DNA of 64,000 nucleotides, from NCBI RefSeq assembly GCF_054482525.1, contig NZ_CM137006.1; one strand, 5' to 3'. A program made the position numbers and the translations under genes. The notes beneath the pieces are model-generated. The model was not told the DNA's origin and ran no database searches. It saw only the letters and a program-made list of their open reading frames with translations. Below, in pieces: positions 11,431 to 11,627 of this stretch (position 1 is its first letter; each line of letters starts with the position of its first letter).

Positions 11431-11473
11431 TCGTCCTAACCTGATTAACTGAGACTGATGGCAACGCCAAATT

Positions 11474-11573
11474 GCCTGATGCGCTGCGCTTATCAGGCCT
11501 ACAAGGTGAATTGCAATTTATTGAATTTGCACATTTTTGTAGGCCGGATAAGGCGTTTACGCCGCATCCGGCA
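11474..11573. repeat. REP/BIME-type palindromic elements in fliC 3' UTR
   Basis: gcctgatgcgctgcgcttatcaggcc and gccggataaggcgtttacgccgcatccggca REP-like palindromes. Confidence 0.7.
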
Positions 11574-11603
11574 ACATGAAGCGTAATTTGTCAGCAACGT
11601 GAT

Positions 11604-11627
11604 CCCCCGCCACCGGCGGGGTTTTTT
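11604..11627 (+). terminator. Rho-independent terminator downstream of fliC
   Basis: cccccgccaccggcgggg hairpin followed by tttttt. Confidence 0.8.

Follow-up and report, generated by a model that had tools for sequence, protein, structure and literature searches.

Positions 11434-11627 (+ strand) of the 64,000-nucleotide stretch of DNA analyzed here (hereafter, the window) very probably hold the ortholog of FliX, the small RNA (sRNA) that E. coli K-12 produces from the 3' untranslated region (UTR) of the flagellin gene fliC. This FliX is a further allele of a published sRNA whose biology is already known, and the value of the finding lies in annotation: a structured region in genome scans is a characterized regulator of flagellar synthesis. 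The region seemed unexplained because the RefSeq/PGAP records carry no annotated feature between fliC and fliA, and because Rfam 15 contains no FliX model.

In K-12, the fliC 3' UTR gives rise to a sigma-28-dependent, processed and Hfq-bound sRNA, FliX, of about 200 nt, and to a form of about 100 nt, FliX-S, which holds one REP from downstream of fliC (Melamed et al. 2023, eLife 12:RP87151; PMC10578931); the statement of an earlier note on this DNA, that a sigma28-dependent FliX from fliC had been described in E. coli, is therefore true for K-12. The evidence reported there comprises Northern blots, Hfq co-immunoprecipitation, RIL-seq, footprinting, compensatory mutants and flagella counts. 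FliX pairs inside the coding sequences of fliC, rplC, rpsS and rpsQ, and its overexpression lowers flagellin, fliC mRNA and the number of flagella, FliX-S having the stronger effect (PMC10578931). Binding to rpsS is lost in a three-base seed mutant, M1 (GCA to CGT), and regained with a compensatory change; the sequence targeted in rpsS, CACGCTGCTGATAAA, is published together with the compensatory M1 version (PMC10578931). Degradation of the target mRNAs is the hypothesis of the authors (PMC10578931).

The parental gene in the window is a 562-aa open reading frame (9742-11430, +; stop codon at 11428-11430), which is annotated as FliC/FljB flagellin in genomes identical to the window. It lies in the order fliD (-, 8070-9476), fliC (+, 9742-11430), fliA (+, 11750-12469), fliZ and tcyJ, and the fliD-fliC-fliA context is common to the window and K-12. 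The first 25 kb of the window are 100% identical to E. coli strain PCN033, and strain 1190 is identical at fliC-fliA and elsewhere not collinear. The flagellin is probably of type H15, given that the 25-kb stretch with fliC in it aligns to an O7:H15 genome in one piece at 99.4%; it differs in any case from the H48 type of K-12, whose flagellin has 498 aa against 562 aa here. Upstream of the gene, a motif scan located a sigma-28 (FliA) class-3 promoter motif, TAAAGGTT-N11-GACGATAA (9639-9665, +), with 2 mismatches to TAAAGTTT-N11-GCCGATAA. Five such motif sites occur in the window where 0.64 were expected, those outside fliC being at fliD, motA/MotR and tar, and the fliC 5' UTR is identical to the fliC(-70) template of PMC10578931. 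At the level of the motif, then, synthesis of the window FliX would be sigma-28 dependent.

From the stop codon (11430) to the end of the T-run (11627), the tail of fliC measures 197 nt and consists, in order, of 43 nt of unique sequence, a y REP, a linker, a z1 REP, 32 nt of unique sequence and a terminator. The y-type REP, GCCTGATGCGCTGCGCTTATCAGGCCTAC (11474-11502, +), is the iREP arm of a BIME-1; it ends in CTAC and forms a hairpin of -13.2 kcal/mol. The linker, called L (11503-11538, +), is 36 nt long and AT-rich. The z1-type REP, GTAG followed by GCCGGATAAGGCGTTTACGCCGCATCCGGC (11539-11572, +), forms a hairpin of -21.6 kcal/mol (z = -4.5). The y and z1 REPs stand in opposite orientations, linked by inverted pairs I1 and I3, and shuffles of the window predict 0 chance matches to either REP pattern. 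The intrinsic terminator of fliC (11605-11627, +) is of the Hfq type: its stem (11605-11621) has 7/7 G-C pairs and is followed by six T residues (11622-11627), with a free energy of -14.6 kcal/mol (z = -3.2) that none of 200 shuffles reached. Structure in the tail as a whole is well above that of shuffles (z = -4.5 and -4.2); the 195-nt tail folds at -73.4 kcal/mol, compared to a shuffle mean of -53.3 kcal/mol (z = -4.5). The two REP-like palindromes that the earlier note had placed at 11474-11573 are thus both present, with coordinates correct to within 1-2 nt, and so is the GC-rich hairpin with T-run that it had placed at 11604-11627. It had missed that the REPs and the linker make up one BIME-1 and that neither REP contains the functional seed.

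Alignment with K-12 carries the assignment to FliX. The tail is identical to the MG1655 fliC 3' UTR at 186/194 nt, end to end and with no internal rearrangement; it counts 194 nt against 195 nt in K-12, and the lone 1-nt difference in length falls in the T-run. The K-12 cloning primer for full-length FliX, SM044, starts 4 nt past the stop codon, which corresponds by alignment to position 11434, and the T-run sets the 3' end, giving a full-length ortholog of 194 nt (11434-11627, +) that is located in the 3' UTR, in the same sense as fliC, with the fliC terminator as its end. The FliX-S primer SM673, GAATTTGCACATTTTTGTAGGCCGG, matches 25/25 at 11523-11547, inside the L linker, and delimits a 105-nt ortholog (11523-11627, +) of the processed form that is the more active one in K-12; this product contains the z1 REP only. 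The FliX seed, TTTGTCAGCAACGTG (11587-11601, +), is identical to that of K-12, with the M1 triplet GCA at 11594-11596 in an identical context, TTTGTCA[GCA]ACGTG. Because M1 maps there, the functional seed belongs to the unique sequence that separates the z1 REP from the terminator, outside the REPs. The window therefore displays full-length homology to K-12 FliX, a seed with its GCA triplet and the 5'-end sequence of FliX-S, and the proposal of the earlier note that this tail of about 200 nt is the source of a FliX-type sRNA is supported by the 186/194 nt identity and by the mapping of the primers and of M1.

Locus, seed block, M1 triplet, FliX-S 5' end, BIME-1 and sigma-28 promoter motif are thus shared with K-12 FliX, from which the window allele differs by eight substitutions and by a T-run that is one base shorter (U6 versus U7). 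Two of the substitutions are in the first four nucleotides (TCCT versus TTGT) and four flank the seed (GAAGCGT...GATC versus AAAGCGC...GCTT), namely G at 11578, T at 11584, A at 11602 and C at 11604. Either the flanking substitutions or the U6 tail might affect how the RNA is processed, how it binds Hfq or how far its pairing extends.

Conservation of the seed was assessed by aligning nine long-UTR alleles, associated with flagellins of 420, 436, 498, 548, 562, 576, 580 and 585 aa. A 17-nt seed block, AATTTGTCAGCAACGTG, is invariant in 9/9 alleles, and its flanks are among the most variable positions of the UTR (5' AACAT[G/A]AA[GC/TG]G[T/C]; 3' [A/C]T[C/T]), the window allele being unusual in having GATC instead of GCTT before the terminator. 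This invariance fits a seed under constraint, and falls short of proof because the nine-allele alignment contains other invariant runs of similar length. On the target side, the rpsS region is present at 95% identity or more in 5425/5426 complete E. coli genomes. Within the fliC coding sequence, RNAduplex predicts a pairing site at 10140-10174 (+; +399 to +433 of the gene) with core AACGTGCTGGCAAA. It is the best site in both the window and K-12, its core is conserved, and it falls within the fliC 171-460 footprinting template of PMC10578931. The predicted duplex has an energy of -28.6 kcal/mol in the window, where 8/300 shuffles are as good, and of -23.4 kcal/mol in K-12, where 125/300 are as good and the value is not significant by itself; since the K-12 value is no better than those of shuffled seeds, duplex energy alone was given little weight. 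Complementarity of the window FliX to its targets is in this way predicted for the rpsS and fliC sites.

Outside these alleles, a scan of 100,044 species representatives, E. coli's own included, returned 0 matches to a pattern combining seed and terminator, which does match the window and K-12 locally. The seed 17-mer had 29 matches in the same set, all in unrelated taxa and roughly the number expected by chance. Neither representative scan gave an Enterobacteriaceae match, E. coli included, though K-12, O157:H7 and the window carry both; the empty result for the E. coli representative reflects either a short or variant allele in that genome or a miss of the scan.

Folding predictions suggest a difference between the two forms of the RNA. 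In the minimum free energy fold of full-length FliX, both REPs pair into one long BIME hairpin, and an intramolecular 'anti-seed' (CUGAU...CUGAUGG; 11443-11461, +) is predicted to pair with the seed, 11455-11461 with 11588-11594 and 11443-11447 with 11600-11604. In the predicted fold of FliX-S, which runs from the z1 hairpin through the seed to the terminator, the z1 REP is folded on itself and GCAACG is in an exposed loop. The computed probability that the seed core is unpaired is, for all nine alleles, 0.26-0.34 in FliX versus 0.47-0.58 in FliX-S. The 5' anti-seed is thus predicted to mask the seed in part in FliX and not in FliX-S, and this modest and consistent difference in accessibility would fit the higher activity of FliX-S in the K-12 paper.

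The BIME-1 itself deserves separate comment. According to PMC3333891, which summarizes the Bachellier/Gilson classification, a BIME-1 consists of one REP of type y and one of type z1 joined by a long linker, in single copy. By its sequence, the pair of REPs in the fliC tail with their linker is one such element: the y and z1 REPs are inverted and have CTAC/GTAG feet, the element is in single copy at the locus, and no tandem REP array is present in the fliC tail. The family is dispersed, a 380-nt query matching an E. coli genome at a median of 29 places, and the 64-kb window contains two BIME-1 copies and one other REP pair. PMC3333891 adds that BIME-1 L linkers often have an IHF site; here an IHF-like site, ATTCAATAAATTG, lies in the linker on the minus strand (11514-11526) with one mismatch to WATCAANNNNTTR. 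The fliC element shares with the BIME-1/RIP family the y + L + z1 layout, the GTAG/CTAC feet and its single copy, and its linker has a putative IHF site; it differs in being part of an sRNA transcript, in which the L linker would be the FliX-S processing site and the z1 REP the 5' hairpin of the active form. As quoted in PMC12306157, REPs located at most 15 nt past a stop codon constitute a class with translation-linked down-regulation; the y REP of fliC starts 44 nt past the stop (11430 to 11474) and is outside this class.

The second BIME-1 (57505-57602, +; y REP, L and z1 REP) lies between torZ and cmoB, torZ being identified from the annotation of genomes that match there and cmoB being the downstream gene. 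Its REP arms match those of fliC at 26/29 and 29/30 positions, and an equivalent IHF-like site is at the same position. The earlier note had described a near-copy of the fliC module after torZ, to be judged by alignment. The copy is real and the two modules do align (blastn, 80% identity across 105 nt; MAFFT, 86% per column), while the term 'near-copy' was slightly generous, as the L linker has diverged; because the linker carries most of the divergence, the torZ element is a paralogous member of the family and not a near-identical copy, and it forms no part of FliX. The BIME-1 of the torZ-cmoB intergenic region (57454-57618) is present in 3884/5426 genomes, and strain 1190 has a clean empty site there, with an intergenic region of 34 nt.

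Taken with the K-12 results, these features outline how FliX would act in the window strain. Sigma-28 (FliA) polymerase would start at 9639-9665, read fliC and stop at 11605-11627. The 197-nt tail would be cut off just past the stop codon to yield FliX (194 nt), and a second cut in the AU-rich L linker of the BIME-1 would yield FliX-S (105 nt). FliX-S would consist of the z1 REP hairpin, the 32-nt unique stretch, mostly weakly paired and carrying the seed UUUGUCAGCAACGUG, and the terminator hairpin, whose U-tail would bind Hfq. The seed would then pair with sites internal to coding sequences, in fliC near +405-420 and in rpsS, rplC and rpsQ of the S10 operon, and target mRNAs, flagellin and flagella number would go down, amounting to a late negative feedback on flagellum synthesis. 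Finally, the anti-seed (11443-11461) may mask the seed in part, so that processing to FliX-S would activate the sRNA. All of these steps except the last are demonstrated in K-12, with the exception of the cutting enzyme and of target degradation (PMC10578931). For the window, the anatomy of the tail, its orthology, the identity of the seed, the promoter motif and the strength of the terminator are established, and we infer expression (by orthology), processing and Hfq binding.

CpxQ and SroC are further 3'-UTR-derived, Hfq-dependent sRNAs processed from mRNAs. Compared to other 3'-UTR sRNAs, FliX is distinguished by a body made of a mobile repeat, the BIME-1, by targets inside coding sequences instead of at ribosome-binding sites, and by the fact that its own parental mRNA is also a target. 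FlgO, derived from flgL, resembles FliX in its use of the parental promoter, its endonucleolytic release, a terminator that serves as Hfq-binding 3' end and a seed located directly upstream of that terminator (PMC10578931).

Comparison of complete E. coli genomes indicates that FliX is not present throughout the species. With a 380-nt query, the long fliC UTR was found in 3502/5426 complete genomes. In genomes without it, homology to the window starts exactly where the terminator stem begins; the terminator is thus kept even where the rest of the UTR is missing. In the short-UTR genomes that were inspected, O26:H11 included, an intact fliC is separated from the same terminator by 18-20 nt (7/7), and neither the BIME nor the FliX seed was found in any of the seven. 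These short UTRs are of three types, LSLLR* followed by TTTACACTTATCGCTCAA, LSLLQG* followed by TCGCCTGAATGCCTCTCAAA, and LSLLQG* followed by TGGCCTTAACCTGCCTGA. The H11-like type occurs in at least 863 genomes, a lower bound, as the 28-nt word of megablast undercounts diverged alleles with short queries (88 and 101 nt); for this reason our counts rest on the 380-nt query. Two of the short forms resemble the long form in the first bases past the stop codon, a similarity that points to an internal indel of roughly 155 nt, placed between the end of fliC and the terminator. The block in question, made up of the unique 5' anti-seed, the BIME-1 and the unique seed, is present in about 65% of complete genomes and absent in roughly a third, including O26:H11 and O111:H11/H8-type strains. 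A limited search of the literature found no report of a FliX polymorphism.

Since about a third of E. coli genomes are without the whole module, FliX function is dispensable. We give even chances to the proposition that FliX is an accessory module tied to the fliC allele and not a core regulator, and that lineages consequently differ in feedback on fliC and on the S10 operon. On this proposition, a mobile BIME-1 would have supplied the processing site and the 5' hairpin by which a masked 194-nt form is converted into an active 105-nt form. If a third of E. coli, major EHEC lineages among them, are without FliX and yet keep its ribosomal-protein target sites, post-transcriptional models of flagellar control derived from K-12 would fail to transfer to these strains. 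Recombinational replacement of the H antigen would, in addition, exchange a regulatory RNA together with the antigen.

A different possibility is that the tail acts in cis alone, as a 3' UTR which protects the mRNA and terminates transcription before fliA, any fragment being a decay intermediate with no role in trans in this strain. Its hairpins would shield fliC mRNA from 3'-to-5' exonucleases, a role in keeping with the stabilization of upstream mRNA and the termination ascribed to REPs in the introduction of PMC3333891; BIMEs are found at many places in each genome, the torZ paralog among them with no known sRNA; about a third of E. coli genomes get by with a UTR of 18-20 nt; and the phenotypes of a chromosomal fliX-M1 mutant in K-12 are mild, flagella number, FlgJ and fliC mRNA being up and motility unchanged (PMC10578931). 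Yet a purely cis-acting tail does not account for a functional seed that lies outside the REPs, in unique sequence invariant across nine alleles, nor for the pairing with rpsS established in K-12 by compensatory mutations, together with Hfq binding (PMC10578931). Cis and trans roles are moreover compatible, and we regard a role in cis alone as improbable.

An action of the tail mainly at the level of DNA is less probable still. In that case, IHF bound at the L linker and gyrase and Pol I bound at the REPs would make the element a topological insulator between fliC, which is very highly transcribed, and the promoter of fliA. The single-copy y + L + z1 structure, with an IHF-like site that has one mismatch and recurs in the torZ copy, agrees with this idea, and PMC3333891 describes REPs as binding IHF, Pol I and gyrase and as insulating supercoiling. 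However, binding at the fliC copy is putative, short-UTR strains maintain the fliC-fliA arrangement without a BIME, and both the invariant unique seed and the K-12 RNA data would be left unexplained; FliX and a function of this kind could also coexist.

That the relevant product is instead a REP RNA, either ES036 (CssrF)-like on the minus strand or naRNA4 (CssrE)-like, is hardly credible: the ES036 match (minus strand, 11495-11536; 37.6 bits) just equals the gathering score of that family, and the naRNA4 (RF02564) match (plus strand, 11542-11582) reaches 42.6 bits, but the latter is below its gathering score of 59.5, covers one of two hairpins and skips 42 model positions, neither family is reported at gathering threshold on the whole window, and the fliC UTR showed neither a promoter nor a terminator on the minus strand. 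Because the two Rfam families model pieces of the REP/BIME repeat, a match to them signals membership of the repeat and not a gene; as identities for the UTR, naRNA4 was rejected as sub-threshold and ES036 as on the wrong strand, both being repeat-derived. A 42-aa open reading frame at 11458-11586 was likewise discarded as a gene, as it is read-through of the REP/BIME and has no coding support.

Other RNA features are found elsewhere in the window. The locus of MotR, a sigma-28-dependent sRNA from the same study (PMC10578931), is at 35430-35558; its sigma-28 motif occupies 35430-35456, all 26 nt (26/26) of the MotR +1 primer match at 35463, a terminator ends near 35558, and the body shows several differences from the K-12 template around 35503-35512. 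A REP-like hairpin pair (46381-46445) begins about 9 nt past the stop codon of cheZ, where the sigma-28-dependent tar-tap-cheRBYZ operon ends, and fits the 'REP within 15 nt' class mentioned above. MicL, an sRNA within cutC, is recognized over the full length of its Rfam model at 53285-53592 (+) with 368 bits. C0465 RNA is recognized at 39949-40026 (-) with 91 bits, and overlaps a perfect sigma-28 promoter of tar (+, 40016-40042).
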